A stretch of DNA of 64,000 nucleotides from Tubulanus polymorphus (taxonomy: Eukaryota; Animalia; Nemertea). Position numbers and translations under genes: made by a program. The notes under the pieces are model-generated. The model was not told where the DNA came from, did not search any database, and worked only from the letters and a program-made list of their open reading frames with translations. The first letter of the stretch is position 1, and each line of letters begins with the position of its first letter. This document shows positions 9,294 to 48,482 of this stretch, in pieces. The DNA lies in the NCBI RefSeq assembly GCF_964204645.1, contig NC_134027.1, positions 19,492,560 through 19,556,559 on the forward strand. The letters are read 5' to 3'.

Positions 9294-9363
9294 AGTAATT
9301 GTAAAAGTGGGGTTTCATACCAGAGTACTAGAGTACTAAACACCACTCATCACCACAAGTAAT
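9294..9363 (+). repeat. P1 left terminal inverted repeat
   Basis: Reverse complement of 26180-26249. Confidence 0.95.
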
Positions 9364-9670
9364 AATTCAATTGAGTATGAGACACCACTCATCACAGCTA
9401 GGCTCTAGTGAGAACGGACGATTGCTCTGTGACACACATATACAGTGAGTGCGCGTAACAACATCTGCGCGTGGATTGATCGATACAGTGAGTCTCTACT
9501 GAGAACGGTTATTAACGCGTGTGCTATTACTGTAGTACAGTGATTGCGTGTCAACTGTACCCGGATAAATAGATGCTGTGAGGCTTGGGTGAGAACGGTT
9601 AATAGCGCGCTTGTTATATAGGGGGAAGTAATCCCCACTCATTACCACAAGTAATTTTTTTTCCTTATAA

Positions 9671-9886
9671 ATGGAAAGGAATGATGAATACAATAAAAAA
9701 CTTATGTGGGGTTGGAAAAATTTACGGCCTTTAGAAAAGAAAGAAAATCAAATCAAATCTAATAAACTAGATTTACAGTTATATTTAGAACAGTTAACAA
9801 AGGCAAAGAAATTTATTGAATTATGGAACAATGATCCAAATAATGAACAATACGTTGAGGAATTTGATATCAAGGAACCGAAATGA
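9671..9886 (+). CDS. P1 hypothetical 71-aa protein
   Basis: TAAATG start behind the same ~105-bp leader as ORF 10022. Confidence 0.65.
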   Translation: MERNDEYNKKLMWGWKNLRPLEKKENQIKSNKLDLQLYLEQLTKAKKFIELWNNDPNNEQYVEEFDIKEPK

Positions 9887-10021
9887 CTTATCTAGACAGT
9901 TATAATTACTGCTCCTAATAGATGCTGTGAGGCTTGGGTGAGAACGGTTAATAGCGTGTTTGTTATATACAAGGGGAAGTAATCCCCACTCATCACTACA
10001 AGTAATTTCTTTTCCTAATAA

Positions 10022-10348
10022 ATGGGAGATAGAAAAGCATTCTTAGCAACAATAAATAACAGAATAAAACCAGCAAAAAAACAATTTGAAATAAAAAAGT
10101 TAGTTGATGTTACAAAAGAAATTGAACATAAAATATTGAAATTAGAAAAGATAAAAACTAAATATGGAGAGAAAGTATCAGCTAATTTAAGCTACTGTAA
10201 TGTTAGTACATCGCGAGAATTTAAAGTATTTTTACCTGATAAATGGGTTTCATTGAGTACAGAGGAATTAAAAGATTTAGAAGGATTTAAAATAATCTAT
10301 CATGGAAAAAATGAAGACGGCCATCATGATTTAGAAATTGTTGATTAA
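10022..10348 (+). CDS. P1 conserved small protein (possible OB-fold/ssDNA-binding)
   Basis: KKL..TKYGEK..VFLPDKW..YHGKN is shared with 34850-35178 and 53384-53725. Function is inferred only. Confidence 0.75.
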   Translation: MGDRKAFLATINNRIKPAKKQFEIKKLVDVTKEIEHKILKLEKIKTKYGEKVSANLSYCNVSTSREFKVFLPDKWVSLSTEELKDLEGFKIIYHGKNEDGHHDLEIVD

Positions 10349-10539
10349 ATTAAAAAAAATAAATTAATAAAAATAATGAATATCTAGAATCCGAAATGAC
10401 TTATCTGGACAATTTAATTGCTCCGCATAGATGGTGCCATAAACGGCACCCACACAGTGATAGACAAAAGTAGTGAGATATTCAATTAATATTCAATTAA
10501 TTAAAAAAAATTATTTTTTTTGCTTTTTTTCTAAAATAT

Positions 10540-10904
10540 TAATCCATTTTTTTTTATTGTCAATTTTGGAATTTCAGAAGTATTTTCATTTTTAATAGCA
10601 GTTGTTTCAGAATTATTAATATCATGAATTTTATTTGATTTCTTATACCAATTACACCCAATCAAAATGAATACAATTACAAATCCAACTGTAAAATATA
10701 AATATTTATCAAATATTCTATTATCAGAAGGAGTAAAAATAACAATATTTTCACTATTTTTATTGACATTTTTATTATTTTTTCTTTTACAGCTTTTTTA
10801 TATTCTTGTGATTTAATTCCTAATTGCCGAGACCATTCAATTTGTTTCTGTGATCTAGGTTTTTTCTTCACAGTTAATTCTTTCACTTCTTTCACCTCGC
10901 TCAT
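10540..10904 (-). pseudogene. P1 small membrane protein, frameshifted
   Basis: Homologous to intact 36263-36619 and 63212-63556 (KKKPRS.KQI.W plus TM segment). Confidence 0.75.
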
Positions 10905-11441
10905 TTATTATAGAAATATTTTTACTTTCAATATTTGAAAATGTTATAACCCCAGTTGATAATAATGTCATAAATCCGCCTAATTGAAATGATAAATATC
11001 CAATCCATTTATTTAATTCAGTCATAACTAAATAGTCATTTTTTAAATCGGAATATAATCTATTTTCATCTTCAATTGCTAGTATATAATTACATAATTT
11101 ACTATAACCTTTTACTACATTTTCTGATATCGCGTCATTAATTCTAGCTGTTCTCGCGGTTTCATAAATCTTAAATAATCTAATAATTTCATCTGATTTC
11201 ATTGTATCTAGTTCATTATAAGTTAAATTTTTACCGACAAATTTTTACATTTTCCAGATGCTATTAATATTTCTAATTGATGTTTACAATAAAGATAATA
11301 TTCATAATTATTATTTGTTGTAACATTATTTAAAGCACCATCATCTGGAATTAATTTGTTTTCTGTTATTCCTAAATCATCTAAAGTTTTTTCAATTGGA
11401 ACATCACCATTTTTAGTTTTTATTTTCTTTTCACCTACCAT
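10855..11441 (-). pseudogene. P1 conserved hypothetical protein with hydrophobic C-terminus, frameshifted
   Basis: ORFs 11223-11441 and 10855-11202; homologs at 36528-37158 and 63549-64000. Confidence 0.75.
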
Positions 11442-11457
11442 TTATATAACAAATAAA

Positions 11458-11735
11458 TTAGTTGTGTTGTTGCAACTAGAATTCAACTAGAATGTAAATA
11501 GAATTCAACTAGATTAACAAGCTAGTTGAAATATTGTTGTTTTTATTTATTTCTTGTTAAATCTAGTTAATTTTTGTTCCAACTACTAATAACTAGAATT
11601 CAACTAGAACGTAACTAGAATTAAACTAGATTAACAAGCTAGTTGAAATATTGTTAAATCTAGTTGATTTTTATTCCAACTACCAATAACTAGAATTCAA
11701 CTAGAATTCAACTAGATTAACAAGCTAGTTGAATT
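11458..11735. repeat. Intergenic AACTAG/CTAGTT repeat array of P1
   Basis: Three units of aactagaattcaactagaa..aactagattaacaagctagttgaa; also present in P2 at ~37177-37478. Confidence 0.9.
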
Positions 11736-12343
11736 TAAATAAATTCATATTTAAATGGGTGTTGTAATATAAATAGTAATTTTGATCTTTTAATATTTTT
11801 CAACTTATCCATATATTCATTATGTAAATCATGTGGAATAATATCATTTTCCACAAGTGCATTTTTCATCGATTTTCTATCTTTATTGTAGAATAAAACT
11901 AGAAATCTAATGTTTTCTCTAAAGTCTTTAACAATTGAATTATATTTTTGATTTAAAACCCAAGTTGTTATCCCAAAATGTCTGCCAGAAAAAGCTAAAT
12001 AGCATAACTCACTTTCTCTAACTTTTGAATCATGTAGATTAGCACAATCATCTATAATGAATAATGTATTTGATCCTTTATAAATATCAATTGCTATTTT
12101 AATACAATTATCTAAATTTTCTTTTACTGTATTAGGATCTAATATAATAAATTTATTATTCCTAGTAATATTTCTATCATAAGTTTGATTAAATTCATAT
12201 GTTGGACAAAATGATACTATATTATCAAAATAGTTTTCATAAACAGTTTCTAATAAATTTAATATAAAATAAGTTTTTCCACAATTTGTTACACCAGAAA
12301 TTAACATATTATGAGGCTCAAATATGAATAATTCCTTATTCAT
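11735..12343 (-). CDS. A32-like (FtsK-HerA) packaging ATPase
   Basis: Walker A GVTNCGKT, Walker B FIIDD, GRHFGI and NQKY motifs. Confidence 0.93.
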   Translation of the reverse strand: MNKELFIFEPHNMLISGVTNCGKTYFILNLLETVYENYFDNIVSFCPTYEFNQTYDRNITRNNKFIILDPNTVKENLDNCIKIAIDIYKGSNTLFIIDDCANLHDSKVRESELCYLAFSGRHFGITTWVLNQKYNSIVKDFRENIRFLVLFYNKDRKSMKNALVENDIIPHDLHNEYMDKLKNIKRSKLLFILQHPFKYEFI

Positions 12344-13472
12344 TTATATATTTTTAATTTTACTTGATAATATCCATTCATTGAATTTATCCGGCCATCC
12401 AACCCATTTTACTAAAGAATATTTTTTTCTTTTAATAGTTTTTGTTTTTAATACTTTTTCAATTTTTATTTTCTTGTTCTAGATTTTCAGTAGTTAAACT
12501 CAATTCTTCTTCATTAAAACACCCATCAACTTCTTCGCCATTTAAATCTTCTAATTTATAGACATATGGTTTTGTTGTTATTACCTTTTTTATTTTATAT
12601 ATTTCTCTAGTAAAATTTCGATCGTATCCTTTATCAAATATCTTTTTATACTTAGAAATTCTAACATTTTGACCAACTTTAAATTTAGGTTCACCAAAAT
12701 CATCTACAAGAAATGCTGCATATAAATTATTCCAAACAATTTCAGCATTTTCAGGTTTTCTAGCATCAATAGGTTTCATTCCAATAGAAGAATGATAAGA
12801 ATTATTATATCCTTCTATCAATTCTGGTAAAACATCAATCCATTTAAAAGTATTATTTGCTGTAAAATATTTCCACATTCTTGTTCTTAATGTTCTATTA
12901 AATCGTTCAACAACTGCTGCTTTTTTATCCGATTTTGTTGAAAAATATTCAATATTATGATTATCTAAGAGTTCATGAACAAGTGAATTATCAAATTCTT
13001 TTCCATCATCAAATTGTATTTTTTCTGGTTTTAGTTTATCATCCGAAAGAAATTTTCTTAAAACATTTGATGTTTGTACAGCATCTTTTCTATAAAGTGG
13101 GAAATTCCATACATAACGACTAAAAATATCAATTATATTCAATAACCACCAATAATCATCATTATCTTTCTTAACATTTTTCATATCAATTAAATCTCCT
13201 TGCCACTGTTGATCTACATAACTTACCATAGTTTTACGAGTTTTATATTTTCTAACAATTTTTTTATGTGTTGTGTATGTTGGTTGTTCTAACATAAATT
13301 CATTTATATCTTTATATTTAACTAAATTGTGTGGGATTATCTTATCTAATTTATCTTGTTTTACTTTACGCCATTTATTTTTAGTAGAAGAATAAGCAAC
13401 CGAACTCTCAGGGTTGTAATATAAATTTCTTAAATATTGTTCTTTAGTATTAGGAGTTTTTTTACCTCCCAT
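12344..13472 (-). CDS. Retroviral-like (rve) integrase with C-terminal chromodomain (frameshift near 12465)
   Basis: QWQGDLIDM, IDIFSRY, QFDDGKEF, VERFNRT; the chromodomain VKWVGWPDKFNEW lies in the shifted frame. Confidence 0.93.
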
Positions 13473-13502
13473 TTATATATCGTTAATTTTAACTTTATAT
13501 TT

Positions 13503-14656
13503 CTAATATTGAATACTATCTAACTGTGAATTTACAATATTTAATTGTGCATCAGATATAATATAAATGTGGATTTTAAAATTTTTGTCTCCTCTTTTCT
13601 TTTTTATGAATAATTGTATTCCATCTTTAGTGTTCTGTAGTTTTTTCCCAGAACCATGTAATGAATTATCCTCTGTTGTTCTAAAATCTAACCATAATGC
13701 ATATTTATTGCCGGTATAATAATCAATTTGATTAATATTACAATTTTCAAATGATTTTACTTTTTCATTCATAAAATGTTTTCTAATTTCTGGCCACTGA
13801 TCTATCATTCTCATTCCTTGACAAAATATTTTATTTGCTATTCCTTCGATAGTTATTTCTACTTTTGTTATTTCAGGATTATAATAATTATCTACCTTTA
13901 TTGCACCATTAGAATATGTTGCAATTTTAAATTTATCAATATAATCATATAATAATGAAAATCCTTGATTGTATTGAGTTTGAATTATACTAGCAATATT
14001 TTCATTAGTTACTGTGTTATATTCTAAACATATATTCGATAATTTATAACCCATATCTTTAACAACGCTAGATAACACAATTTCATTTACAGGAGCAAAT
14101 GTTATCTCAAATATAATATCTTCTTGAATTACATATTTATATAAAGGTGCATTATTATTTATCAATTCAAAGTCTAATGGAATTTTATATTTGCTTCCAT
14201 AAATCTTTTTAACAAATTATCTGTGGCACGAGTTACTATTGCGTCATTAGCTCCTGATCTTAATTTATTATGGTTTTCTGATTGGATGCCTTGAAATATC
14301 ATATTATTTCTATTTTCTTTAGTTAACCATAAATCTTTATAATGCATAAATAAATTATAATCATCTAATGAAAAAACTGTTTCTGGACCAATCTTTATAG
14401 TTAATTTTTTAATCAAATATCTTCCAACATTATCAACAACATAATTATTATCATGACCGGTTACTTTTATATCGGCTGATAAATAAATACTATTTGGAAC
14501 ATAAAAAGTATTTTGTGTTAATCGAGGGATTCTAACATATAAAGTTTCATCGGGATTAATATTTGAAGGATTATGAGTAATTATATTATGTGATCTTTCT
14601 GCTTTAATAGCATTAGATATTCTAGAAATCTTAGGACTTATATAACCCCCACTCAT
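13503..14656 (-). pseudogene. Major capsid protein (probable double jelly-roll), frameshift plus 30-aa in-frame deletion
   Basis: Beta-rich ~415-aa family (ITHNPSNI..NVGRYLIKKLTIKIG). Lacks TVTINANDEIINENINFPRRSIKGILIFFT, which is present in P3. Confidence 0.75.
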
Positions 14657-14679
14657 TTATTTAACAAAAAAATTAATTA

Positions 14680-16125
14680 TTAATTTTTTATTATTTTTTT
14701 CTTGATATTTTTTGATATCATATTCACTAACCCTAAAATAATAGCACTTACAACTGTAATTAAAAATAAAATAATATGTTCAGCAGCAAAGTTAAGAATA
14801 TTACCTGCAGATTTCAATATAAAACCAACAATTGATGCAATAATTCCTGGTAAAGCTGCAGCAGATTTTTTAGATAGTTCCCATAAATATTTTGCTAATT
14901 TCTTTAAACCATCTTTAACTTTATCTTGTATAGAATTATTATTCGGGGGTTTATCTGGTTTATTTGGAGTAGGAGTAGATTTTAAAGCATTTGATATTGC
15001 TAAACCAATTGTTGTAAATAACATAGTTACAGCTGTTATAATTGAAAGAATTGTTATTCCTTCTAACTTAAATAATAATTTTATTCTATCTTTCAATGAT
15101 ATTTCAGAATTTGGTTTTATCAATAAATCTTTAAAAATAACTTTTAATCTATTAATATTATAATCATATGATTTTAATAATAATTTAATTTCTTCTTTCT
15201 GTACTTCTAAATTATCTTTTAAATTATTAATTTCTTAATTCGTAATTCTTTTTGCCTATACTCTATTTCATCAATTACTTGATGATCTAAATCAGACTTT
15301 AGTTGTTCTATTTCTTTATTTGCATTAGTTAATTCTTTTTCCAAATACATAATTTTTTGATCTCTTATACTTTTATTATGTTCAATTTTATCAGCTTCAT
15401 TTCTTATACTAATAATTTCTCTAATTGCTTCATCAGAAAATATATCTAAATCTTCTAATTCTTGATCTGTTGCATCAATTAATCCATTCGGTAAAAGTTT
15501 TTCAATTGAAACTTTATTTGATTTAAGGTTACTATTTTTGGAAGTTATATTCTGTTCAAAAGTTGTTTCTGTTTTTGATTTCTTTTTGATTATTTCAAAT
15601 AATTCATTAATTCTTTGTTTAAATACGTCTATATTATCATCTCTTTCTTTTTGTGTAACATCAGTTTTTTTATTACTATTACTTATTCTTTTAATTCTCT
15701 GGATCTAAGTCACTCAAAGTTGATTCCGCTAATATTTTTTTTAGTTTTGTCCTTTGATTAGTGATATCAATATAATAATCACCTTTCAAACGATAATAAC
15801 ATTTACCATTATCTAAAAATTTTAATTGATATGCTAAAAGACCAACGTCTTCATCATTTATATTAAGATTAGAATTTTCAATTATACGTTCTAATTTTGG
15901 CATTTTGTTTAAATTATCTAAATTTTCTTGTACTAAACCTGGGTTTAAATTTTCAGGATTTAATTGTGATTCTGCATTTTTAATATAATCAGGCATATTT
16001 AAATTATTATTATATCCTGGCTCATTACCGTCATTAAAACTTGTTTCATCAAAATCAGGTGGTGGTTGTTCATCACTTATACCAGGTTCATCAAAAGGAT
16101 CCATTCCAAAATCTTCTACATCCAT
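14680..16125 (-). pseudogene. Coiled-coil protein with C-terminal TM helices, frameshifted
   Basis: Homolog of intact 57419-59107. Confidence 0.8.
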
Positions 16126-16139
16126 TTATATAAAAAAAA

Positions 16140-17469
16140 TTAAAATTTAAAATATAATATTCCTCCTATAACAATTCCTATACAAGTTAAAGCTAATTTA
16201 GTATTTTCATGGGATTTATTATCATCATTTAGTTTAATTATATCATGTTGAATATTATCAGTTCTAATATTTTCTGATGTATTATAATCCGGTTTAGAAT
16301 CATTATTTAATTTAATATTATTAGTTTTAGTTTCTGTTGATTGAATATGTTTTTCATTTTTTTCACCTTCCATTAATTTTGGAGCAGTAATTATCTTTTT
16401 ATTTATATCATTAAATCCAACTGAATGATTTATTGTTGCAGTTTTAATTGGATTATTATAACCAATTATGTTTCCCATCTTTAATACTAAATCATTAGAA
16501 ATAATAAATAGATTAGGGCCTATACAATAATTTAATCTAATATGTGATTTATCTAAATAATTTTGATATCTTACAATGTTTTCTGGAATCGAACTATTTT
16601 TATCATTATGAATGGAATCTTCAAATAATACTTTAAATTGTTTCTGCGCGTCAAATGAAGTACTATCATTTCCAACTATTGGTGATCTTGTTTCAACTTG
16701 CGCACCTAAAATACATATCAAATAAGTTCTAATAGATTGATTTATTCTTTGTATACCAGCTTTAGTAAAACCTTCGCTATTTTCTAAAATGAAATTAACC
16801 CAACCATTATTATTTTGTTGTTGTATATTATTATAATATTTTGGTAATTCATTCCAATTTAGTGTTCTTATATCTGTATTTATCATTATTTTTCCAAATT
16901 CTTTAGTATACAGTACTCCTAATCCACCCATTGTTCCAATTTTTGCTCTAAAATCTTTATTTGAATTAATATTAAATTCATTACATATTTTATAAAACTT
17001 AGAAAGATTAATGTTATTATCTAATTCTTTAAAATATCTAGACCCTGGTAAAGGCCATTCTAATTCATCTATTATTAATTTTATTTTATTATTATATTTA
17101 AGTATGAAATCTAAAAAGTGATAATATTAATGGTAAACTTGGTTTGTTTAAATGATCATTCCAACTAATTCCACATCCTGTTGTTGCGCAATAAACAGCA
17201 AAATTTAATTGGTTCTACCAATACTTCATATTAGATTTTAATAACCATTGTTTTGCCTCATTTAAATCTTTAAAATTAATTGTATACACATGAAATATAT
17301 TTTCCATCCTTACATGGAAATTATTACTTTCAGTAACATAAATATATAAATCAATTAATGAATTTAAAACTACATTTTTATGTGTAATATCTTTATTAAA
17401 ATCTATTGCTTGAATATTATATTTAATTGATTTATTATATTGGAAAGCTTTTGGAAAACTATCTACCAT
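16140..17469 (-). pseudogene. Conserved protein with C-terminal TM anchor, disrupted
   Basis: Homolog of intact 56014-57402. Confidence 0.8.
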
Positions 17470-17485
17470 TTATATAATTAAAAAA

Positions 17486-17924
17486 TTAATAATTTATTAA
17501 TTCTTTTAATAATTTATCTTGTTCTTCAACTGTTATATGACCATTTAAACTTATGATATAATCTAGTGTGTTCTTTAATTTATTAATTTCTTTTATATTA
17601 GTTTTAATTTTTTCTTTATTACTTTTTACATTCAATTTTGAACTTATACCAGTTAAAACACTTGAACTTAATCCTAATACACCAATTGATATAGCTAAAG
17701 GTGTTAATGGACTGAATATTGCTAGAAATGTTATTACAGAACTAATTGTAACCGAACCACTTATATATAATCAAATAATATATAATTTTACTTTTTAAAT
17801 ATTTTTTCTTTTTTATCTTTAAGTCACTTTCAAATTCTAATATTTGTTTTTCTAAATATGTTTTTAATTTAGTTTTATTTATAACATGAGGAATAATATC
17901 AATATTATCAACTTTATCTTCCAT
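17486..17924 (-). pseudogene. Two-TM small membrane protein, frameshifted
   Basis: Homolog of 55563-55997. Confidence 0.8.
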
Positions 17925-17943
17925 TTATTTAGAAAAAAAATTA

Positions 17944-18366
17944 CTAATTAGTAAATTTATATGCTACAAATATAACAATAACTGTTCCACCTAAAATCCA
18001 TATTATTTCATATTTCTGTTGTTCTTTACTTGGGGTATAATAATCTGATAATTTAGGTTTGTATAGATGTAATTTTTCTTTATTGGTTACCGCGTTATAT
18101 AAACTCATTGCATCATCAACTGATAGAAAATCTCTATGTGAAATATTCTGATCAATTAATTCTTTATTGATGTAATCCATATAGTTTTGCCTCTTTTCTC
18201 TATATTCTTCAGTTGCTTTATTGTATTCCTCTGATGCTAAGTTATGTCTTTTTTGTTCTGATAATGAACCATTTTCATCAATTTGCTTGAATAAAAAATT
18301 ACCACCTGTAAATGCCAAAGCGTTAACAATTGCTGATCCTATAATAGTTATAACTGCAGAAGCCAT
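17944..18366 (-). CDS. Conserved 140-aa protein with hydrophobic termini
   Basis: Homolog of 55121-55543; TAAATG start. Confidence 0.85.
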   Translation of the reverse strand: MASAVITIIGSAIVNALAFTGGNFLFKQIDENGSLSEQKRHNLASEEYNKATEEYREKRQNYMDYINKELIDQNISHRDFLSVDDAMSLYNAVTNKEKLHLYKPKLSDYYTPSKEQQKYEIIWILGGTVIVIFVAYKFTN

Positions 18367-18390
18367 TTATTTAGCAAAATAATTACGCAT

Positions 18391-18612
18391 TTATATGGGA
18401 GGAATATATTTTTGTTTTTCTAAATAATCAATAGTTAAATTAGATAAAGTAACTGCTAACGTTAATTTTAAAATATCATTTATATCAAATCTATCAACAT
18501 TAACACTACCCATTTTAAATACTTTTTTTAATACCATTGAATAACCAACAGTTCCAACTGATAGTAATGCTCCATTATATAATCCAGTTATTATCCACTT
18601 ATTATCACTCAT
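18391..18612 (-). CDS. Conserved 73-aa hydrophobic protein
   Basis: Nearly identical to 54875-55096. Confidence 0.85.
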   Translation of the reverse strand: MSDNKWIITGLYNGALLSVGTVGYSMVLKKVFKMGSVNVDRFDINDILKLTLAVTLSNLTIDYLEKQKYIPPI

Positions 18613-18969
18613 TTATTTATCAAAAAAATTACTATCATCAAAATATTTAGTTATCTTAGTGATGATTAATTCAACATTTATTTCATTACTAGTTTCATTT
18701 GTATATATTTCAATTATTATTTTTTTAATATCATCGATGATAAAATCTTCATCTAATTCATAAAATCTTAAAGATTCTCTAATTAAATTAGTAATCTTTT
18801 CTACATTTAAAGTTTCTTTATCTATTGTTGTTTCATACTCAAATGTTGTTTCATTAGAAAATGCAATATTTTTGATATGTGTAATTACATCATTAATGTT
18901 AAATTTCATTTCTTTCTCATGTTTAAAATCAAACCCAAAACATATACTCGGTCCAACAGATATATTCAT
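18613..18969 (-). CDS. Conserved 118-aa hypothetical protein
   Basis: Homolog of 54515-54874. Confidence 0.8.
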   Translation of the reverse strand: MNISVGPSICFGFDFKHEKEMKFNINDVITHIKNIAFSNETTFEYETTIDKETLNVEKITNLIRESLRFYELDEDFIIDDIKKIIIEIYTNETSNEINVELIITKITKYFDDSNFFDK

Positions 18970-18985
18970 TTATATAGTGAAAAAA

Positions 18986-19744
18986 TTACTCTCTACATCT
19001 TATAACTAATTCATATATCACAGAAAAATTATTCAAATCAATTAAATATACATTATGATTTCTTATTTCTAATTTAAAATTATTGAAATGTGGAATACAA
19101 GGTTTGAAATCACATTCAGTTAAATTATAATTTATTTGAGTTCCAAATTGTTTAACATTTTTTAATGGTAAAATATTTAATATACTAGAATTACATGTTG
19201 TATCTTTAGTTGCTTCGAATGTTTTTGTAGGATCGATTAAATTGCAATAAATATAAAAGTGTGTAAAAGGTATTAAGTTTGATCTACCTTCTGCGTGTGC
19301 TGTAACAATATTTGGGTTAATTCCTAACAGTTTAGCTAAAGGTTTTCTTACTGTAAATTTAAATTGTTCGTTATTATCTAACCTAATCTTTATTTTATTA
19401 GAACTATCACTTTTTAAAATTCTAATATTAAATTTAGAATCACTTCCTAATTTAGCTCGAGCTTTTCTATTAATTTCTTGTGCTAATGTATCTAAATTAT
19501 ATAATCCTGGTTTTAAATATATAAAATACCATTCATTCATTTTTTTGTAAAAGATTGAAAAAATTAAATGTTCTAGACTTTTATCCGATATATTGTAAAA
19601 TGAGTTACATAAACTTATATTAACTAATTTTAAATCAACACAATTCTTAAATTCTCTATCTATTTGTACTAGTAAATTATGTGATTTATAATTTGTAAGT
19701 TTTCTAGAATCAACAAATATTCTGTATTCTTTTGATTCTACCAT
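18986..19744 (-). CDS. Minor capsid (penton) protein
   Basis: IFVDSR..NSFYNI..PGLY..YIYCNLID..IDLNN pattern of Polinton/virophage pentons. Confidence 0.8.
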   Translation of the reverse strand: MVESKEYRIFVDSRKLTNYKSHNLLVQIDREFKNCVDLKLVNISLCNSFYNISDKSLEHLIFSIFYKKMNEWYFIYLKPGLYNLDTLAQEINRKARAKLGSDSKFNIRILKSDSSNKIKIRLDNNEQFKFTVRKPLAKLLGINPNIVTAHAEGRSNLIPFTHFYIYCNLIDPTKTFEATKDTTCNSSILNILPLKNVKQFGTQINYNLTECDFKPCIPHFNNFKLEIRNHNVYLIDLNNFSVIYELVIRCRE

Positions 19745-19812
19745 TATTTATAACATAAAAAAATTACCGCTCATCACTAAAAATTAATTTTAATAAAATT
19801 TTTCCTTAATAA

Positions 19813-21128
19813 ATGGATGAGAAGATAGCATGTGAAATTTGTGGTGAACTTCTAAGAAAAAGTAATATGGCTCGACATATGAAAAAACATGATGAAAATT
19901 ATAAACCCCCTAAAATAAACTGCCCAAAATGTAATAAATTATTCTCAAGAAATTATGTTAAAAAACATTCAGAGAAGTGTAGAATTAATGGCGCAACGGC
20001 TAATGTTGATAGTAACGAAAGTAATAGTAATTCTGCTGAAGTTGAACCTGAAGTTATTTGGAAAATACCTTTCTTATTCTATGATAAGGATAATATAAAA
20101 GATCATTTCTGTAAGCCTTGTCGAATAAAATATAGCCCTGAAAATATAGAAGAATGGGAGAATCATCAATTTCGTAAAGCACATATAGATAAAATTTCTA
20201 ATAAATTTGAAACTGAATTCAATGAAAGAAAAGATAATTTATTAGAAAAAATAAATATGAGAAAACGTTACCAGATAATAAAGAAACAGTTGAAAAGTTA
20301 GAAAAACAATATAATGAATTAACAAGAAAAACATATTATTGTAAATATTGTAAATTGATTATTACAACAAGTAATTCAAATCTACATAATAGAACAATAA
20401 AACATAAAGAAAACGTAAGAAAATACCAAGAGCTTAATGAAGATCTATTACCAATAAATTATAAACAAAAATGCCCACACTGTAGTTATGAGACCTTAAA
20501 ACAAGAAGGTACTGTGTTATTTTGTAATGAATGTGGATGGCAAAAGAATTTATGGGGTGAAGAAAAAACTAGAAATTTTCTCATAGATCCAAAATTAAAT
20601 AATCTAGATGAAATTTTTAAAATATTTTCTATAGAAGATCATACACCAGAATATAAGCAATGGCTTGAAAAAATGAAAATAATAGAAAATAGAAATGGTG
20701 AAATAACTAAAAAAGATATTATAAAAACAATTATTCCGTCAACATTTAACACAAAACAAAAGAAAATGTATTTATATTTATTATTTAACGATTATTATGA
20801 AAAACCTAAATTAACAGAAGAAGATATGGAAAATATAAAAAAAATATTTAAACAAATATTAATGTATCATTTGGAAAATAGAATAACAGATTCAATTAAT
20901 TATGAATTCTTTTTAAATGAGATTGTGAATTATTTAAACATCGATATTATAATTCCATTTGATGAATTAACAAACAAAAAGAAACAAAGAGAGCGAAATG
21001 AAATGTGGAACAAGATAGAACTTTATTTAAATGAGGAAAATGGAATGGAAGAAGAACCTGAACAATTAAATGAAAATGAAGAAGCCAATAGTGATTTCGA
21101 TTATGATGATATTGATTTTATGTTTTAA
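19813..21128 (+). CDS. Multi-Zn-finger protein fused to poxvirus A2/VLTF3-like late transcription factor (one frameshift ~20250)
   Basis: Four C2H2/C2HC-type fingers, then a CPHC..CNECG ribbon and IFKQILMYHLEN..SINYEFFLNEI..NEMWNKI, which match the VLTF3 C-terminal pattern. Confidence 0.72.
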
Positions 21129-24100
21129 TAACCATAAGGTAATGTTTTTATACCATCATCTAAAATATGCCTTTTATCATCAAATGGATTCAAACTAGTT
21201 TTTTTCAACTTCATTAATGTACATCTCGTGATCTTCTGATCTTAAACAATTCATTTTATGTTTCATTACAATTGATTTATATAAACACTTTATATAATCT
21301 TGAAATTCTATATGTTTATCAACCACATGTTTTGTTATTCCTTTTAACTTTTTAGCTTCACGATCTTTTGTTCTATAACTATACATTTTACTTCTTATTC
21401 CAACAAATTCAATCATTTCATCACCCCCTAATTCATCTTTAAATTTACCAGGAATCTTTTTATTATCATTGCTAAATAGTTCATGATCTTTTGGATAATT
21501 GCTAAAATCAAAATAATGTTTTAATGTTTTTAAGTCTTTTGTTATATCATTTGTCTTGATTTTTAGTATGTAACTATCGGTATTTTTTTGGATTAATGGG
21601 AACCCAGAATTGAATGTTCCATCATCTGTTGATAAATCATAAACATAGTCAGTTGGGTTATATATTTCAAATAAATCTTTAACTTCTTCTGTTAATTCTT
21701 TTTCTACATGCCTTAAATTAAAACAATTTGGTTTAGATTTAATTAATTCTATATTCATATTAAATCCTAATGAACTGCATAATATATTCAATCCTGATAT
21801 AGCAACTTTTCCTTTTTGAGCAAAGGATATTGTTTTGCGGTTTTGGAAACTTTTTGAACCATCTGCGGCATAGAATCCAATGAAGAACCACTTTCTTAAA
21901 TTATTTTCTGCATTTAATACATAATCTGGAACTATCTTTTCTTTTGTTGAAGTATTACTTTTCACTATTGCGTGAATATAGAATTCATCATTATATTTTA
22001 TAGCAAAATCTTTAGGATTATTTACAAGTATTCTATAAACTGCTGTTGATTTCATAACATCCATGATTCTAAATGTTTTATGTGAATAAACTTCTTCACA
22101 GAATTTCTTAATTCTTTCTAATAATTTTAAGTCTTGATTGCATAAATACCAACAATATTTATTACCCCAAACATAATTATACACACCTGCTGAACCCACA
22201 CCCATGAAAAATCCTTTGATAAAATATTCTTTTTCTTCTAATGTTTCGGGTTCTATATTATAAATATTATCAATTATTTCATCAAATGACATATGATTCA
22301 TTCTTTGGAAAAATCTTTTATGTGATAATTCATCTCCAATTTTTATATCAGTTGGTTTTATTTCATCGCCATTTCGTTTAATTAAACTATGATCTTCTGT
22401 AACATCTACAAATCCTAATTTAGTTCTAACTCTATAGATTTTCTTATTTGTTTTATGCCTAATAATATTCTTTAATTTTTTCCATCCATTTCTTGTCCAA
22501 ACATCCATTAAACCATTTATTTGTATTAATTCTTTTTCACCATATGAAATATAACATTCATTTTGTTTTGGAATTATTTCTGAAATTCTTCTTATCAATA
22601 TTTTATCATTACATTTTAATAATATTGGGGTGTCAGCTGTTACAGAATCAAAATATAATATTTCAATATGCTTTTCCCCAAAAAGTGGTTGTAAAACATT
22701 ATAATAAAAATCATACATTAATAATTTTGATATTTCTAAAACAGTTGAACCTATAAATATTGGTTTATTAAATTTCATTGAAGTTCTTTTTAATTTAACT
22801 GCTGTTAAATAATCTTCAAATCTTTTATTTCCTAAATGTGTAGGGCTTGATTGTAAATGTCTTAATCTTTCAGAATTATTTACTAATTCAATATCATTTC
22901 TATTTCTAATATTTTCACATGTTTTTCCATAAAAACTATTATTCATTAATTTGAAGAAATCTTTTTCAAAATCTGTTTTTGATATGGTTCTCTGTTGAGT
23001 ATTGAAATCTATATATTTTTCTAACCACTTCGATTGATTAAATTCAATATATCTATGTACTTTCTTTAATTTCATTCCTTGTTTTAGATAAAATTTAAAA
23101 ATTCTATAATGAACGATATAATTGTATTTATTATTTTGACTATTCAGTAAAAATTTGAGTATTCACTTAAATAACTATCATCTACAGTTAAATGTTCTGG
23201 GCAATAAGGTAAGTTTCTTGTTTTAAACTTTATATTTTCAGGATATTCTAAATCAACTACAAAGAAATAACCAATTGGTGCTTCATCTTCTAAACTCATA
23301 ATTGCGCTTTCCCAATTAGTTTTATCATCATTTTCAACTTCTGTTAATATAAAATTTTTATATGGTTGAGGTTGCATCATTGCCCAACCATATAAATTAT
23401 TGGCGTCAATATATAATAATTTATATTCATCATTTGCTTTAAAATACCTATTTCCCATAACACCACTAATTCCACCTCTAATTGATTTTTCAAATAATAA
23501 AACCATGTCTGGTTCTTTTAATAAATCTAATTCTACATTTGTATATTTTAAACCACATTGCCAGGTTAAACCAGGACTAAAGTAGCAATAACAAGGATCA
23601 ACATTAAAATGATTCAAATTAACTTCTCTAAATTTTTCAAATATGTCAGCCAATATAATAACATCTGATTTTAAATATAAATCAACTAATTCACCATGAT
23701 TTTTCATCTTAAAATGGTTCCAAATATTTAATGTTCTATTAAACACTTCGTCTTTTACATACTCCTCTTTTAATTGATCATAAAATTGATCTTTTAATAA
23801 TTCTGTTACATTAAAATCATTGTGTGTTTTATAAAATGAATAAGGAATTGCGCCTTTATATCTCAATAATTTAAAATCTTGTTCATTTGGATAATAATAT
23901 CGAGTTATAACAAAGTCATTATCAACTAAACTTTTTGATAAATTATCTTATGAACTTGCTAGAAATCTATAAGAATATAAAAATCTAATGCAACCAAATT
24001 GAAATGAAATATAATTTTCAGATGTTTTAGCTAATAGTTTAAAATCATATTTTCTTACATTTGCTTCATTCATAGCATTATATTCTTCTATTTCTTGATT

Positions 24101-26164
24101 AATTGTACCCAATTTCTTTAATAATTGTTTTATAAATAGATGGGTATCATAGCCGGATAAATTATGAAATAATATTGGAACGAAATTTACTTTTTTAGCT
24201 TGTAAATTGCAATCTTCATGAGCAGCTCCACGATATTTTGAATTTAAATGATCATGATGTCTAACTTTTTTATCAAATGAATAAAAACGTTTTTCACAAT
24301 AACAACAATGAGTTGCATAATTAAAATCAATTTCATCTTCTTTTGTCATAACTATTCTTTTAATTTTGTTTAATAATTTTGCAAAATCACTTTCTAATTC
24401 AATCATTTTATCACAAAAATCATTAACTACATTTTCACCTCTAAAAGAAATATATTGACTTTCATATAATTCAGGATAATTTGATTTTATATAAATTCCA
24501 TAAGCAGCAGCTCTTTGATGAACTTTTTTAATTGTATTTATAATTGGTGGGTCTTGTATTGTGTCTTCATTTAATTCATTTCCTTTATCCATTGATTTTA
24601 ATAATTGCTTTTTGTTATATATTTCTTTTCTATCTTGATCAGTTAATTCTTTATTCAACGATTCAAAATCCCCATAAATTACAAATGGAACAATATTCTT
24701 AAATTTATGATTAGTAAATTTCAACTTACAATCTTTTTTTGTTGGCATTATTAATTTACAAAAATCTTTATTATCGCATAATTCTTTATGTTTTAGTAAC
24801 GCATTCTCAGTCATAAATTTAGATAAACATTTTCTACATAGATAAATTTTACGATGATGATCACTTTCTGTTGTTCTAAAGAATAAATCAATTTGTTTTA
24901 ACCACATATAATGTTCATTTTCATCTTTTTTGTAATATAACAAATCTATAACATTTTCATCATCATAATATTCTGTTAAATATAAAGCTTCCAATGTATA
25001 ATCTTTAATATTTTCACCTTTTGTCTTTGGTAATTGCATTAATTCAAATACATTTATTTTTAAATTATTAACTTTTTCTATTTTAGGAATCATTTTTATA
25101 GTTACCGGATATTGATTAATTTTATATAATGTTTCATATTTCCGGTAATTTGTTATTCTAAAACTATGCGTCATATCTTCTGTTGGGTGTAAGCAACTTA
25201 TAATCGCCCACAGAAAACATTTATTATCATCATTCTGCATATTAATTACTGCATTAGTTTTAAATGGTAATTTAATATAACTTGATGCTTTCACATCCTT
25301 TTCTATTATAAAGTTTGAATCATTTTTAAACATTTTATTACTTTTTGATGTTTTATTTCTTTTTGTATTATAAACATTTAAATCTAAATATATAATTTCA
25401 TTCAATGTTAAGCCAGAACCCTCAAAATATCTTTCTTCAATATGACGTTTAAATTCATTTAATATTTTTTCTAACTTCTCTTTTATTTGTGTTTTTGAAA
25501 TTATTTCTTCAGAGAGTGTTTGAATATTATAATTCATTTTTTCTTCTGACTTTATAAAACTTACTTTCCCAGAGATACTAATTTTTGGATATTCAACATC
25601 TGTTATCAAATCTAGTATTTTTTCTATTATTTCATTAAATTTACTATAATCTTCTATTGTTGTACCTTTAAAAAATCTAAATATAATAGCTGCAGGACCA
25701 ATTTTACTATGTAATGTTTCTAAGATTTCAATTGTATCTTTTATTTCTAGTGAATCAATATAATTTCTAACATTTTCCATGTAAGGTTTATTTGAAATGG
25801 ATTTAGTTTTTGAAGTTGATTCTTTTACTTGTTGAGGTTTATCATCAAAATAATCTTTTCCTAAAACATTATTACTCAAATTTTGGTTGTGTTTTTGTGA
25901 TTCGAGATGTCTATTATAATTCCTTTTTACTATAAATTCATTACAAACTTCACATTTTATTTCATCCACATTCATATTTTCTAATCGTTCTTTTCTTTCA
26001 TTGGAATTTTCTGGGGTTTCAAAATCTATAACATTTTTTATATGATTTGAAGATTTTTCATGTTTAGATTTATTAGATTTATCGATGTATTTTTTACAAT
26101 ATTGGCAATAATATTGATTTTTATTAACATTATTGTTTTCTGTTTGGTACTCACTCTCTCCCAT
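21125..26164 (-). CDS. Protein-primed DNA polymerase B (Zn fingers, TP/vOTU-like region, EndoVII insert, intein), several frameshifts
   Basis: YGDFES, FHNLSGYD, YLKSDV, YIDANNLYGWAM, KLMNNSFYGKT and YFD|TDS motifs over ORFs 23948-26164, 23144-23866 and 21195-23075. Confidence 0.95.
21582..22646 (-). mobile_element. Intein (355 aa) with LAGLIDADG homing endonuclease in pPolB
   Basis: YFD|SVTADTPI..VTEDHSL..FIKGFFMGVGS..FFIGFYAADGS..YVYDLST..IQKN|TDS; absent from P3 pPolB (YLDTDS). Confidence 0.95.
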
Positions 26165-26866
26165 TTATTAGGAAAAAAAATTACTTGTGGTGATGAGTGG
26201 TGTTTAGTACTCTAGTACTCTGGTATGAAACCCCACTTTTACAATTACTATTTGGGATGACATAATTTTGGCAGAGGGAGTCGAAGAAAACGGGCGTCTT
26301 TCTCTCAATGCACGTACTGGAATGGACCTAAAACTATGAAAGAGGTTAGAAACATAAGGAGGACAAAGTCTGTTTGAAGCTTTGAACATATAATTCCTTT
26401 TTACTATAAATTCATTACAAACTTCACATTTTATTTCATCCACATTCATATTTTCTAATCGTTCTTTTCTTTCATTGGAATTTTCTGGGGTTTCAAAATC
26501 TATAACATTTTTTATATGATTTGAAGATTTTTCATGTTTAGATTTATTAGATTTATCGATGTATTTTTTACAATATTGGCAATAATATTGATTTTTATTA
26601 ACATTATTGTTTTCTGTTTGGTACTCACTCTCTCCCATTTATTAGGAAAAAAAATTACTTGTGGTGATGAGTGGTGTTTAGTACTCTAGTACTCTGGTAT
26701 GAAACCCCACTTTTACAATTACTATTTGGGATGACATAATTTTGGCAGAGGGAGTCGAAGAAAACGGGCGTCTTTCTCTCAATGCACGTACTGGAATGGA
26801 CCTAAAACTATGAAAGAGGTTAGAAACATAAGGAGGACAAAGTCTGTTTGAAGCTTTGAACATATA
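25915..26866. repeat. 474-bp tandem duplication covering pPolB 5' end, right TIR, TSD and LINE flank
   Basis: 25915-26388 is repeated at 26389-26862; second TIR ends at 26723 and is again followed by ATTTGG. Confidence 0.93.
26180..26249 (-). repeat. P1 right terminal inverted repeat
   Basis: Ends AATTACT followed by TSD ATTTGG. Confidence 0.95.
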
Positions 26867-33912: not shown

Positions 33913-34849
33913 AAAAGAGAAAGTGAAATAGGACCAAGTATCAGTTTTGTATTTTAATGCAGATGTTAGCATTTTATGAATTATATTTTCAGTGCGAGCG
34001 TAAGCATTTTGTTAGTTAAATTTTCTGTTCAAGTGACCTCTAGAATTTTAAATTTTTATATATATTTTATCTGTATATTATATGGGACGACCGATTGTCT
34101 TTCAAACACAATGCAGGTTCATCTTGTCTAGAAACAAGAAAAATAAAGTTGATTTGAGTAATTCGATGTAGTAAAATTCAGTCATTTATTAGGTTCTATC
34201 CTTAAAATCATGGTCCCTTTGTTGACAGCTATTAGCCTCAATCCGTCCAATTGTAGTTTCTTTCGTGGCCGTATATTTACTAAGAGGATCATCATTCCTG
34301 GAATCCAGGAAGCAAGGGATTTGGTGTGTTAAGGGAGAGGAATCTAATTTAGTCTTGAGCTGCTTCATATTCTGTACTACATGCAGCTAATTACATATAT
34401 GTATCAATGATAAATATACCCCGAAATCAAATTTAGATCAGGATTTACATGGAGAGCTAATCACTTAACATGGGATTATTTTCCCTGTTTTCAACACGCT
34501 GTACTCAGTAGATTTCCCTCAAACCTAAAATACACTCAACTTGGCAAATCATTAATATTTTTCCTGTCTCCTATGTTTTCTATAGAACCCTCGAACTCAA
34601 AATCCATTTAACCGAATGATTTTGTAATCAGCTTTCGCCATTCAATTTGAGCTGACGGGAGTCTACTGTATTACTGCAAGTCTCCACCACATGCAAAATG
34701 GAAAAGAAAATCTGTGTAATTTGGAAGAGAGCATTGTATTTTCATACATTGTATCATAATCATTAAGTAATAGGAAAAGTAGGCTTTCATACCAGAGGTC
34801 GAGAGGTCGAGACACCACTCATCACCACAAGTAATTTTTTTCCTTATAA

Positions 34850-35178
34850 ATGGGAGATAGAAAAGCATTCTTAGCAACAATAAATAACAGAATAAAACGA
34901 GCAAAAAAACAACTTGAAATAAAAAAAAGTTAATTGATGTTACTAAAGAAATTGAACATAAAATATTGAAATTAGAAAAGATAAAAACTAAATATAGAGA
35001 GAAAGTATCATCGAATTTAAGCTACTGTAATTTTAGTACATCGCGAGAATTTAAAGTATTTTTACCTGATAAATGGGTTTCATTGAGTACAGAGGAATTA
35101 ACAGATTTAGAAGGATTTAAAATAATCTATCATGGAAAAAATGAAGACGGTCATCATGATTTAGAAATTGTTGATTAA
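34850..35178 (+). pseudogene. P2 copy of 108-aa protein, frameshifted
   Basis: Near-identical to 10022-10348. Confidence 0.85.
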
Positions 35179-35204
35179 ATAAAAAATAAAAATAATGAAT
35201 ATCT

Positions 35205-36080
35205 GAAAATGACCTTAGTCGTTTTACGAACAACTACAATCATACAGCCAAACATCTGTTACATGTTATTATAAGAGAGTGCTTCATTTGAATATTGATC
35301 GATCAAACAGGTGTTGCAATTCAACGTTGTTGTTATATTGGATAGCTAGCAGTTATATAATAAGCACGCAATACATACAACACACACAGGACAGGATACA
35401 TTCTCTCTCTCGTGATTAAAAGGAATATTTCAGTGTTTTTAAGGTAAGTTTTAGCAAAACCACCCGACTTGACTCGCAGAGTTTTTAGGGGATGAGGATC
35501 CCGTTATTGAGAGGCGCCACGAGATACATATCCCCAAGCATTTCTACTTACACCCCTGTGACCCACACCCTCACTAATTCTCCTTCAATGGTTGACAGGA
35601 AACACATTATATTAAAGGCGCCTAATGCATTTCCTATCAACCCCTTACCCCCGAAAGGAGGATCGAAAGTCGAAACTGAAGGAGAACCACGGAGGGTGGA
35701 CAAAGGTGCATTTTCGAAATGCCCCTGCAAGCCAAGCCCGGCGGCACTCCAGTGGTCGAATGAATTGCCTTATATACTTAGCTAAAACACCGAAGTAAAT
35801 GTTGCTGGTGTTTACTAAAGAAATATGTGAAATTTGAAATTATAAATTATTCCGAATGAAAAGAATATAGGAATGAAAACTGATAAATGAATTATGGATT
35901 TTTAACTTAATTATGATATAATTTTTAATCAAATTAGTTATCAATTATCCATGTTAATTGATTAACAAATTCAAATTCAAATATTCATTTTAGCATCACA
36001 CCCAGTGCTGCCATCTTTCAATTTAAGAAAAAACTAATGATAAGAAACGACTGTAATACAATATTCAAGTAAAAACTTCA
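35205..36080. mobile_element. Unclassified ~0.9-kb insertion in P2
   Basis: Absent from P1; flanked by a duplicated aaataatgaatatct block; GC-richer core at ~35460-35790. Confidence 0.6.
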
Positions 36081-36262
36081 AATTAAAAAACAAAATAAAT
36101 TAATAAAAATAATGAATATCTAGAATCCGAAATGACTTATCTGGACAATTTAATTGCTCCGCATAGATAGACAAAAGTAGTGAGATGGTGCCGTATGGCA
36201 CCCACATGGTGATATTCAATTAATTTAAAAAAATTATTTTTTTTTGCTTTTTTTCTAAAATA

Positions 36263-36619
36263 TTATTCCATTTTTTTTATTGCCAATTTTGGAATTTCAG
36301 CATTATTTTCATTTTTGATAGCAGTTGTTTCAGAATTATTAATATCATGAATTTTATTTGATTTCTTATACCAATTACACCCAATCAAAATGAATACAAT
36401 TACAAATCCAACTGTAAAATATAGACGTTTATCAAATATTCTATTATTAGAAGGAGTAGAAATAACAATATTTTCACCATTTTTATTACTTATTTTTTCT
36501 TTTACAGCTTTTTTATATTCTTGTGATTTAATTCCTAATTGCCGAGACCATTCCATTTGTTTCTGAGTTCTCGGTTTTTTCTTCACAGTTAATTCCTTCA
36601 CTTCTTCCACCTCGCTCAT
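36263..36619 (-). CDS. P2 small membrane protein
   Basis: TM segment LYFTVGFVIVFILIGC; homologs in P1 and P3. Confidence 0.8.
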   Translation of the reverse strand: MSEVEEVKELTVKKKPRTQKQMEWSRQLGIKSQEYKKAVKEKISNKNGENIVISTPSNNRIFDKRLYFTVGFVIVFILIGCNWYKKSNKIHDINNSETTAIKNENNAEIPKLAIKKME

Positions 36620-37158
36620 TTATTATAGAAAAATTTTTACTTTCAATATTTGAAAATGTTATAACTCCAGTTGATAATAATGTCATAAATCCGCCTAATT
36701 GAAATGATAAATATCCAATCCATTTATTTAATTCAGTCATAACTAAATAATCATTTTTTAAATCGGAATATAATCTATTTTCATCTTCAATTGGTACTAT
36801 ATAATTACATAATTTACTATAACCTTTTACTACATTTTCTGATATTGCGTCATTAATTCTAGCTGTTCTCGCGGCTTCATAAATCTTAAATAATCTAATA
36901 ATTTCATCTGATTTCATTGTATCTAATTCATTATAAGTTAAATTTTTACCGATAAAATTTTTACATTTTCCAGATGCTATTAATATTTCTAATTGATGTT
37001 AACAATAAAGATAATATTCATAATTATTATTTTTTGTAACATTATTTAAAGCACCATCATCTGGAGTTAATTTTGTTTCTGTTATTCCTAAATCATCTAA
37101 CCTTTTTTTCAATTGGAACATCACCATTTTTAGATTTTATTTTCTTTTCACCTCCCAT
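36528..37158 (-). pseudogene. P2 conserved hypothetical protein, disrupted
   Basis: Homolog of 10855-11441. Confidence 0.75.
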
Positions 37159-37176
37159 TTATATAACAAAAAAAAT

Positions 37177-37478
37177 TAGTTGCGATGTTGCAACTAGAAT
37201 TCAACTAGAATGTAACTAGAATTCAACTATATTAACAAGCTAGTTGAAATATTGTTGTTTTTAATTTCTTGTTAAATCTAGTTGATTTTTGTTCCAACTA
37301 CCAATAACTAGAATTCAACTAGAATGTAACTAAAAATATACTAGATTAACAAGCTAGTTAAAATATTGCTATTTGATTTGATGAAAATATTTTATTTGAT
37401 TTTTGTTTCAAATACCAATAACTAGAATTCAACTCGAATGTAACTAAATATGTAATAAATTAACAAACCTGTTGAATT
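37177..37478. repeat. AACTAG repeat array of P2
   Basis: Diverged counterpart of 11458-11735. Confidence 0.85.
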
Positions 37479-38083
37479 TATTTAAATTCATATTTAAATG
37501 GGTGTTGTAATCTAAATAGTAATTTTGATCTTTTAATATTTTTCAACTTATCCATATATTCATTATGTAAATCATGTGGAATTATATCATTTTCCTCAAG
37601 TGCATTTTTCATCGATTTTCTATCTTTATTGTAGAATAAAACTAGAAATCTAATGTTTTCTCTAAAGTCTTTAACAATTGAATTATATTTTTGATTTAAA
37701 ACCCAAGTTGTTATCCCAAAATGTCTGCCAGAAAAAGCTAAATAACATAACTCACTCTCTCTAATTTTTGAATCATGTAAATTTGCACAATCATCTATAA
37801 TGAATAATGTATTTGATCCTTTATAAATATCTATTGCTATTTTAATACAATTATCTAAATTTTCTTTTACTGTTTTAGGATCTAATATAATAAATTTATT
37901 ATTTCAAGTTATATTTCTATCATAAGTTTGATTAAATTCATATGTTGGACAAAATAATACTATATTATCAAAATAGTTTTCATAAACAGTTTCTAATAAA
38001 TTTAATATAAAATAAGTTTTTCCACAATTTGTTACACCAGAAATTAACATATTATGAGGCTCAATAAATAATTCCTTATTCAT
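37478..38083 (-). pseudogene. P2 packaging ATPase, disrupted
   Basis: DNA nearly colinear with 11735-12343 but no intact ORF. Confidence 0.88.
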
Positions 38084-39208: not shown

Positions 39209-39238
39209 TTATATATCCTTAATTTTAACTTTATATTT

Positions 39239-39291
39239 CTAATATTGAATACTATCTAATTGTGAATTTACAATATTTAATTGTGCGTCAG

Positions 39292-39382
<91 letters not shown>

Positions 39383-40533: not shown

Positions 40534-40647
40534 TTATTTAACTAGAAAATTAATCATTTATTTTTTATCATGTTTACTTGATAAAATAATATGTTCAGCA
40601 GCAAAGTTGATAATGTTTCCTGCAGATTTCAATATAAAACCAACAAT

Positions 40648-48466: not shown

Positions 48467-48482
48467 TTATATAATAAAAAAA

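Follow-up and report, generated by a model that had tools for sequence, protein, structure and literature searches.

A Polinton/Maverick copy in the genome of the nemertean Tubulanus polymorphus, which we term P1, carries a gene at positions 19813-21128 (plus strand) of the 64,000-nucleotide stretch of contig NC_134027.1 analysed here (the window) that is broken by a frameshift and specifies a protein in which zinc fingers are joined to a VLTF3-type core. This protein, below called the factor, is probably the element's own transcription factor, predicted to act on the TAAATG promoters found at nearly all gene starts of the element, of which the window also contains the related copies P2 and P3.

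The gene is seen as two overlapping open reading frames (ORFs). ORF1 (19813-20301) encodes 162 amino acids as it stands, while the second frame is open from 20238 to 21128 (296 codons plus stop). The two overlap by 64 bases (20238-20301) in a -1 frame relation, and the only long A-run within this overlap lies at 20246-20251. Two relatives, P0001 (697 amino acids) and P0002 (446 amino acids), are uninterrupted and colinear with both halves, and thus identify ORF1 and the second frame as the halves of one gene of ~438 codons, just as the original prediction, made from the letters of this DNA alone, had joined them through a single frameshift in an A-run. In P0001, residues 10-65 and 186-263 align to ORF1 residues 2-57 and 78-149 (E 4e-15 and 1e-20), and residues 278-546 align to residues 25-292 of the second frame (E 2e-66), which places the frame junction between P0001 residues 263 and 278. 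The A-run is thus marked as the site of the broken frame by the frame overlap, by the alignment of the homologues, and by the sequencing reads described below. Two independent genes were considered and rejected, since the relatives are fused and the second frame displays neither a promoter motif nor an ATG of its own upstream of 20673. An intron was likewise rejected, since the overlapping frames leave no gap and the alignments to the relatives run through the junction uninterrupted.

Short reads across the junction contain both run lengths. In X5, a run of raw Illumina DNA with the same species label, about 12% of which was read, a one-letter change in A-run length relative to the window is seen in 101 of 184 reads across position 20252, and the window's own length is found in the other 83, on which ground an assembly error was rejected. 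The same one-letter variant occurs in the Logan contigs of three older runs (X1, 12932 of 25911 depth; X2, 130/130; X3, 714/714). The frame break at 20246-20251 is real and copy-specific; it is carried by part of the family, about half of whose reads lack it. Coverage of the gene in X5 is about 200x with many variable sites, which indicates a multi-copy family. Depth reaches 230-265x in the factor gene, 160-320x in the neighbouring pPolB gene, and 400-790x in the capsid-side genes, compared to 27-35x in the left flank; assuming that this flank is single copy, the factor gene amounts to roughly 6-9 copy equivalents at at least 90% likeness. P1 further differs from 40-75% of the family reads by one to four letters in length at 10547, 11238, 12463, 17762, 21199, and other positions, some of which sit at gene ends, and these differences fit a partly decayed copy.

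The translations contain the four zinc fingers that had been predicted, followed by a zinc ribbon, a helical core, and a tail. ORF1 (Pfam zf-C2H2, E 1.5e-4), to which the N-terminal parts of P0001 and P0002 are colinear, holds three fingers: finger 1 of the C2H2 type (19831-19890; C7-x2-C-x11-H-x3-H), finger 2 of the C2HC type (19921-19980; C37-x2-C-x11-H-x3-C), and finger 3 (20110-20184; C100-x2-C-x14-H-x5-H). The second frame, whose assignment as the C-terminal half rests on its open frame and on the relatives, adds finger 4 of the U1/matrin type (20331-20426; C34-x2-C-x11-H-x5-H in second-frame numbering), which Pfam recognizes as zf-U1 (E 3.2e-7; 30.4 bits against a cut-off of 22). The ribbon (20472-20534; C78-x2-C-x13-C-x2-C) forms three short strands in the structure model, and all four of its cysteines are invariant in the four family members. 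It is followed by the VLTF3-like core with seven helices in the model (20583-21041) and by the acidic/hydrophobic C-terminal tail NEENGMEEEPEQLNENEEANSDFDYDDIDFMF (21030-21125). The tail is variable among copies, with length variants at 21053-21060 in both reads and contigs.

Structural comparison supports a poxvirus/giant-virus VLTF3 fold for the ribbon and helical core, as modelled, which would make the factor a distant member of this family. The model was computed with AlphaFold2 from a four-member alignment (A1), none of whose members is an annotated VLTF3. It reaches a mean predicted local distance difference test (pLDDT) of 83.4 and a predicted template modelling (TM) score of 0.71, and consists of a three-stranded ribbon and the seven helices. 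A model from the single sequence was set aside (pLDDT 42.8; no Foldseek match at E<=0.001, TM 0.11-0.17). Against BFVD, whose targets are predicted and not solved structures, Foldseek returned six matches at E<=0.001 with the A1-based model. The top match is cowpox VLTF3 (E 2.8e-6, probability 1.00, TM 0.58/0.53, 203 columns, 224-amino-acid target), which we take to be the orthologue of vaccinia A2, the protein to which the original prediction had compared the factor. Two entomopoxvirus VLTF3 homologues come next (E 2.0e-5 and 5.7e-5), and a Megaviridae VLTF3-like protein is also within the six. Of the 35 best BFVD rows, 19 bear the name VLTF3 or late transcription factor; B385R of African swine fever virus is listed too. 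The zinc ribbon lies inside the span aligned to the poxvirus VLTF3 models, and sequence identity in the structural alignment is 18% to cowpox VLTF3 and 14-25% across the matches.

Language-model features point to the same family. In the ESM Atlas, residues 72-270 of the second half found top clusters at 0.96, 0.95, and 0.95, with 27 of 30 matches in the Pox_VLTF3 set, one of which is commonest in Preplasmiviricota; the whole second half reached 0.78, which we treat as a lead only. In Pfam, Pox_VLTF3 (PF04947) is the best non-finger family on trimmed slices. It was matched, at 20802-21017, by four of the ten queries that cover this region, two of them at or above the 25-bit cut-off (26.0 bits, E 8.6e-6, on 20790-21035; 25.6 bits, E 1.1e-5, on 20760-21050). 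The CxxC-x13-CxxC ribbon is positioned ahead of the helical domain as is the A2L-type ribbon in VLTF3. Significant matches to VLTF3 were thus obtained in structure and, on trimmed slices, in profile.

Several results weigh against this assignment. At TM 0.5-0.6, the root mean square deviation (rmsd) is 10-13 Å, so that the packing of the domains is either different or poorly modelled. The whole second-half ORF displays no Pox_VLTF3 match at E<=1, and six of the ten domain-covering queries missed the family. Where it is found, the match is limited to profile positions 83/84 to 160/161 of 168. None of the relatives P0001-P0003 matches Pox_VLTF3, neither as whole proteins (0/3) nor trimmed to ~200 amino acids (0/3), and the ribbon family PF08792 (A2L_zn_ribbon) is absent from the listings at E<=10, in which other ribbon families do occur.

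Solved structures contribute less to the comparison. With the A1-based model, Foldseek found nothing in the PDB at E<=0.001, and PDB searches with the single sequence and with the profile returned only finger or ribbon bits. VIA-align of the model of 20454-21050 against solved chains gave Z 5-6.3, below the level safe for helical proteins, mostly to cyclin-fold proteins (cyclins, the Rb pocket, and TFIIB/Brf cores). The matches to TFIIB/Brf and cyclins span 86-94 residues (Z 5.0-6.1, below a meaningful level; rmsd 3.2-4.6 Å), the TFIIB/Brf cores 5iy6_M, 5wh1_A, 3h4c_A, and 8ity_V scoring Z 5.0-6.0. As in TFIIB/Brf, the zinc ribbon of the factor is followed by what may be a cyclin-like helical repeat; unlike them, it has only one repeat in its core. 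A VLTF3 core composed of a ribbon and a cyclin-like repeat is thus suggested by the models as a lead only. Of the two structural comparisons suggested along with the original prediction, the one with A2-type proteins gave significant matches, and the one with TFIIB gave matches in VIA-align at the low scores stated above and none in Foldseek.

Relatives of the factor are few. When 1.84 billion representatives were scanned in full by HMMER, the second half as query found four proteins at E<=0.001, three of which are relatives: P0001 (E 1.1e-59), P0002 (E 1.1e-29), and P0003 (281 amino acids, E 4.6e-6), the last comprising the ribbon and helical part only. P0004, an unrelated multi-ribbon protein, was rejected, its match being confined to the ribbon. 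A word-indexed protein search gave no match with the C-terminal half and none with residues 72-265 at E<=10; with alignment A1 as query, it returned P0003 only. Scans of IMG/VR with the factor, the ATPase, and a 562-amino-acid P3 protein detected no locus, and tblastn against phage records gave chance matches only (E 8-9). A first scan of metagenomes found none, and a second one, with A1, gave two loci, L001 and L002. L001, a 6.5-kb contig from another record, encodes the 697-amino-acid homologue followed by a convergent, intact pPolB of 1336 amino acids, which is 67% identical to the pPolB of P1. The factor gene is thus convergent to pPolB both in P1 and in this related element.

The second pillar of the proposed function is the promoter-like motif at the starts of the element genes. 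About 30 gene starts in P1, P2, and P3 follow the pattern TAATTTTTTT-N(3-6)-(A/T)ATAAATG(G/A) with fixed spacing, in which the ATG is the start codon; examples start at 14656(-), 16125(-), 17924(-), 18612(-), 26164(-), 54515(+), 56014(+), and 59128(+). Among first-ATG ORFs of at least 60 amino acids, 16 of 26 in P1, 14 of 25 in P3, and 3 of 10 in P2 start in TAAATG, compared to 1 of 31 in host DNA, and the background in P1 and P3 is 110 of 1362 ATGs (binomial p 3e-20). The ORFs that lack it seem for the most part to be antisense or to be internal fragments of genes that are broken, and nearly every genuine element gene start carries the motif. An A-rich stretch replaces the T-run at the ATPase, the integrase, and some small genes, and an additional upstream CTCATCAC box is found at pPolB, at terminal small ORFs, and at the factor gene, where the spacer is 10 bases longer. 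The factor gene itself starts in TAAATG (19810-19815, its ATG being the start codon) and shares a 68-bp divergent promoter region (19745-19812), with its CTCATCAC box at 19770-19777 and a T-run, with a DUF5901-like gene. In L001 and L002, all three visible gene starts lie in TAAATG, and the sequence upstream of the L001 homologue is closely similar to that before the factor gene.

In its sequence, the motif resembles the late and intermediate promoters of poxviruses. Passages of PMC11980589 describe late promoters with TAAATG at the start codon and a T-rich upstream region, intermediate promoters with TAAA and an A-rich upstream region, and A2L as a late transcription factor of the intermediate class. 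In the literature searched, TAAATG and polinton are mentioned together nowhere except in one unrelated context.

Three blocks of ~23% GC, which are copies of one Polinton/Maverick-like family, alternate in the window with DNA of 35-44% GC. P1, the carrier of the factor gene (about 9294-26866, 23% GC), is bounded by inverted terminal repeats of 53-70 nt (9294-10032 versus 26151-26723; 86-100% complementary). It encodes an A32-like ATPase (11735-12343; Pox_A32 E 8.4e-12), an rve integrase (12459-13472; rve E 4.9e-10), weakly recognized capsid-gene pieces (13503-15123; Capsid_N E 0.0011 on a fragment, DUF5901 E 0.0008-0.004), and, as the convergent neighbour of the factor gene, pPolB in three ORFs on the minus strand (21195-26164; DNA_pol_B_2 E 1.4e-10). 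The combination of pPolB, rve integrase, and terminal inverted repeats identifies the carrier as a Polinton/Maverick. With its pPolB/rve/A32 gene set and with no RNA polymerase or D5 family found by Pfam among the 39 element ORFs scanned, P1 is not a giant-virus genome. No protease family was detected among these 39 ORFs at the thresholds used, and several ORFs are without any family.

Within P1, the factor gene is the sole plus-strand gene between the ATPase (11735) and pPolB (26164), and its slot is variable between P1 and P3. As had been predicted, the gene is absent from the visible part of P3: tblastn finds it once in the window and detects only a weak finger match in P3 (49351-49524, E 0.017), and the P1 segment 19750-21130 is without counterpart between P3 positions 53275 and 53737. 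Between the same neighbours, the matching slot holds an ORF of 113 amino acids (53384-53725, plus strand, the opposite strand relative to the P1 gene) that starts in TAAATG and matches no family.

From these features, we propose how an intact factor might act. Nucleic-acid binding would fall to the four N-terminal fingers and contact with an RNA polymerase to the VLTF3 core, and the acidic tail might serve as activation region. Expressed from a promoter class that it would have in common with pPolB, the factor could switch on the T-run/TAAATG genes, in the way that TAAATG late promoters require A2 in vaccinia. The window copy would be a pseudogene that yields only the 162-amino-acid finger fragment, and P3-type copies without the gene would depend on the factor in trans. 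We infer the link between factor and promoter, and P3, with the same promoters but without the gene, speaks against it. A further adverse point is that the genomic copies show no purifying selection at the 37 best-supported of about 128 variant sites, where 10 synonymous changes stand against 27 non-synonymous ones (p 0.22; 13/24 and 11/26 when the same sites are read in the wrong frames). Such neutral-looking variation is as expected for decay after integration and is uninformative on the function of the active form.

A different life style would assign the factor another task. In the manner of a virophage, the element might depend on a poxvirus-like or other helper of the NCLDV group (nucleocytoplasmic large DNA viruses) and mimic its late promoters, while the factor redirects the helper's late transcription or competes with it; we regard this as rather unlikely. 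The likeness of the gene starts to poxvirus late promoters, the lack of an RNA polymerase gene among the 39 ORFs scanned, the low GC content of the element relative to its flanks, and the poxvirus and entomopoxvirus VLTF3 proteins as top structural matches would all agree with such a dependence. In addition, the start codon lies within the conserved initiator, which argues against a TATA box positioned for RNA polymerase II, ~30 bases upstream of its start. The mavirus virophage combines an rve integrase with the late promoter motif of its helper, which counts for this explanation, and mavirus-type virophages resemble P1 as small integrating pPolB/rve elements with a uniform short promoter similar to a giant-virus late promoter. 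Unlike for these virophages, however, no helper is known here, the 64-kb window contains no helper sequence or helper gene, and the flanks hold an animal-type retrotransposon; mavirus is not known to have a VLTF3 gene. The P3 integrase carries a chromodomain, the copies, in part decayed, lie in nested arrangement with host retrotransposons, as would be expected of germline-resident Polintons, and P3-type copies have kept the promoters without having the gene.

The factor could also be a generic zinc-finger nucleic-acid binder, for instance an accessory of the polymerase in replication or at the terminal repeats, whose likeness to VLTF3 reflects nothing but common helical packing. We find this quite improbable, even though the gene adjoins pPolB in both P1 and L001, pPolB itself starts with similar U1-type fingers, Pfam support for Pox_VLTF3 is marginal, and VIA-align rises only to the Z scores given above, mostly with cyclin-fold chains. 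Against it stand the specificity of the Foldseek result, in which VLTF3 names fill 19 of the 35 best BFVD rows and the alignments span ribbon and helices of whole poxvirus proteins of 213-224 amino acids, the agreement of the independent language-model features (ESM) on the same family, and the rank of Pox_VLTF3 above all other non-finger Pfam families on the trimmed slices. Use of the frame change, by which slippage on the A-run during transcription or translation would deliver both the 162-amino-acid finger protein and the full factor, strikes us as barely plausible. Both run lengths are abundant in the reads (83 versus 101 of 184), each representing more than one copy's worth if the flank at 27-35x is single copy. 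Yet P0001 and P0002 are uninterrupted, the A-run, read by eye, does not have in its frame the X XXY YYZ form of a canonical slip site, other P1 genes are broken as well (pPolB in three ORFs and the capsid-gene pieces), and the further one-letter length differences in P1 would fit a sub-lineage copied after the mutation and decaying in the ordinary way. A gene broken in this copy, whose product probably serves the element's own TAAATG promoters, is thus the reading that we prefer.

Compared to poxvirus VLTF-3 (vaccinia/cowpox A2) and its NCLDV homologues, the factor has the same order of a CxxC...CxxC ribbon and a helical domain of ~170 residues, and its candidate target genes start in TAAATG as do poxvirus late genes. 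Unlike VLTF-3, it belongs to a pPolB/rve Polinton instead of a giant virus, has ~215 extra N-terminal residues with the four C2H2/U1-type fingers as well as the acidic tail, and has no viral RNA polymerase gene beside it among the ORFs scanned. VLTF3 in Polinton-type elements is already in print. Homologues in stony-coral polintoviruses are mentioned in PMC11131425, in a passage citing Krupovic and Koonin (2016); VLTF3 appears in a figure legend of the adintovirus paper (PMC8502044); a preprint excerpt (10.64898/2026.06.19.733378) gives it for about 30% of the clusters VC123/VC126; and isolated copies in a sea-anemone genome are noted in a passage of PMC5294986. In contrast, a statement in PMC11253617 describes VLTF3 homologues as undetectable outside Nucleocytoviricota. 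Like the VLTF3 of polintoviruses and polinton-like viruses, the factor is an accessory gene product that only a subgroup of Polinton-type elements carries; in this comparison of descriptions, the passages of these reports mention neither a finger fusion nor a promoter motif. New relative to these passages are the divergent zinc-finger-fused form and its pairing with TAAATG promoters.

VLTF3 counts as a giant-virus signature gene, and here a divergent, finger-fused form resides in a classic pPolB/integrase Polinton, in which factor and promoter are paired within one small element. This makes it testable whether Polintons are transcribed by the host polymerase, by a helper polymerase, or otherwise, and whether the late transcription module of giant viruses is common by descent with Polintons. 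A wider and doubtful extension is that these Polintons, resident in an animal-type genome, run a poxvirus-style late system, composed of a VLTF3-class factor and T-run/TAAATG promoters and devoid of a polymerase gene of its own, either as virophage-like parasites of a pox-like or other giant virus of this host that uses TAAATG or as keepers of the ancestral late module of giant viruses, with P1-type copies supplying the factor and P3-type copies using it in trans.

The neighbouring copies are arranged around a retrotransposon. P2 is a partial copy (34766-40650 and 47141-48867) that is interrupted by a BEL/Pao-type retrotransposon with long terminal repeats (41221-46705; Peptidase_A17 E 9e-45, DUF5641, DUF1759, rve) and abutted by P3; an MADF-like ORF also occurs in the higher-GC DNA. 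BEL/Pao elements are not known from hosts other than animals, in keeping with an animal host. The splitting of P2 by BEL/Pao and the adjoining P3 indicate nested insertions. P3 extends from about 48.9 kb to the window end and is inverted relative to P1, and its integrase combines rve with a C-terminal chromodomain (Chromo E 7.8e-5). P1 (11739-13286) and P3 (61523-63061) agree in the orientation of the ATPase-integrase module, while the rest of P3 is inverted; consequently, the P1 and P3 types differ by an internal inversion.

The pPolB genes vary in their inserts and ends. In P1, the segment at 21195-23075 (minus strand) contains an intein with a LAGLIDADG domain, in place of which the pPolBs of L001 (1336 amino acids) and P3 have an Endonuclease VII-like insert. 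The pPolBs start with U1/C2H2-type fingers that are weakly like those of the factor (23948-26164, minus strand; 49351-49524, plus strand; L001:2141-6148, minus strand). At the right end of P1, a 100%-identical tandem duplication of ~474 bp (25915-26392 and 26389-26866) repeats the pPolB promoter and the first 144 codons, among them those of the U1-type finger, as well as a portion of the terminal repeat.

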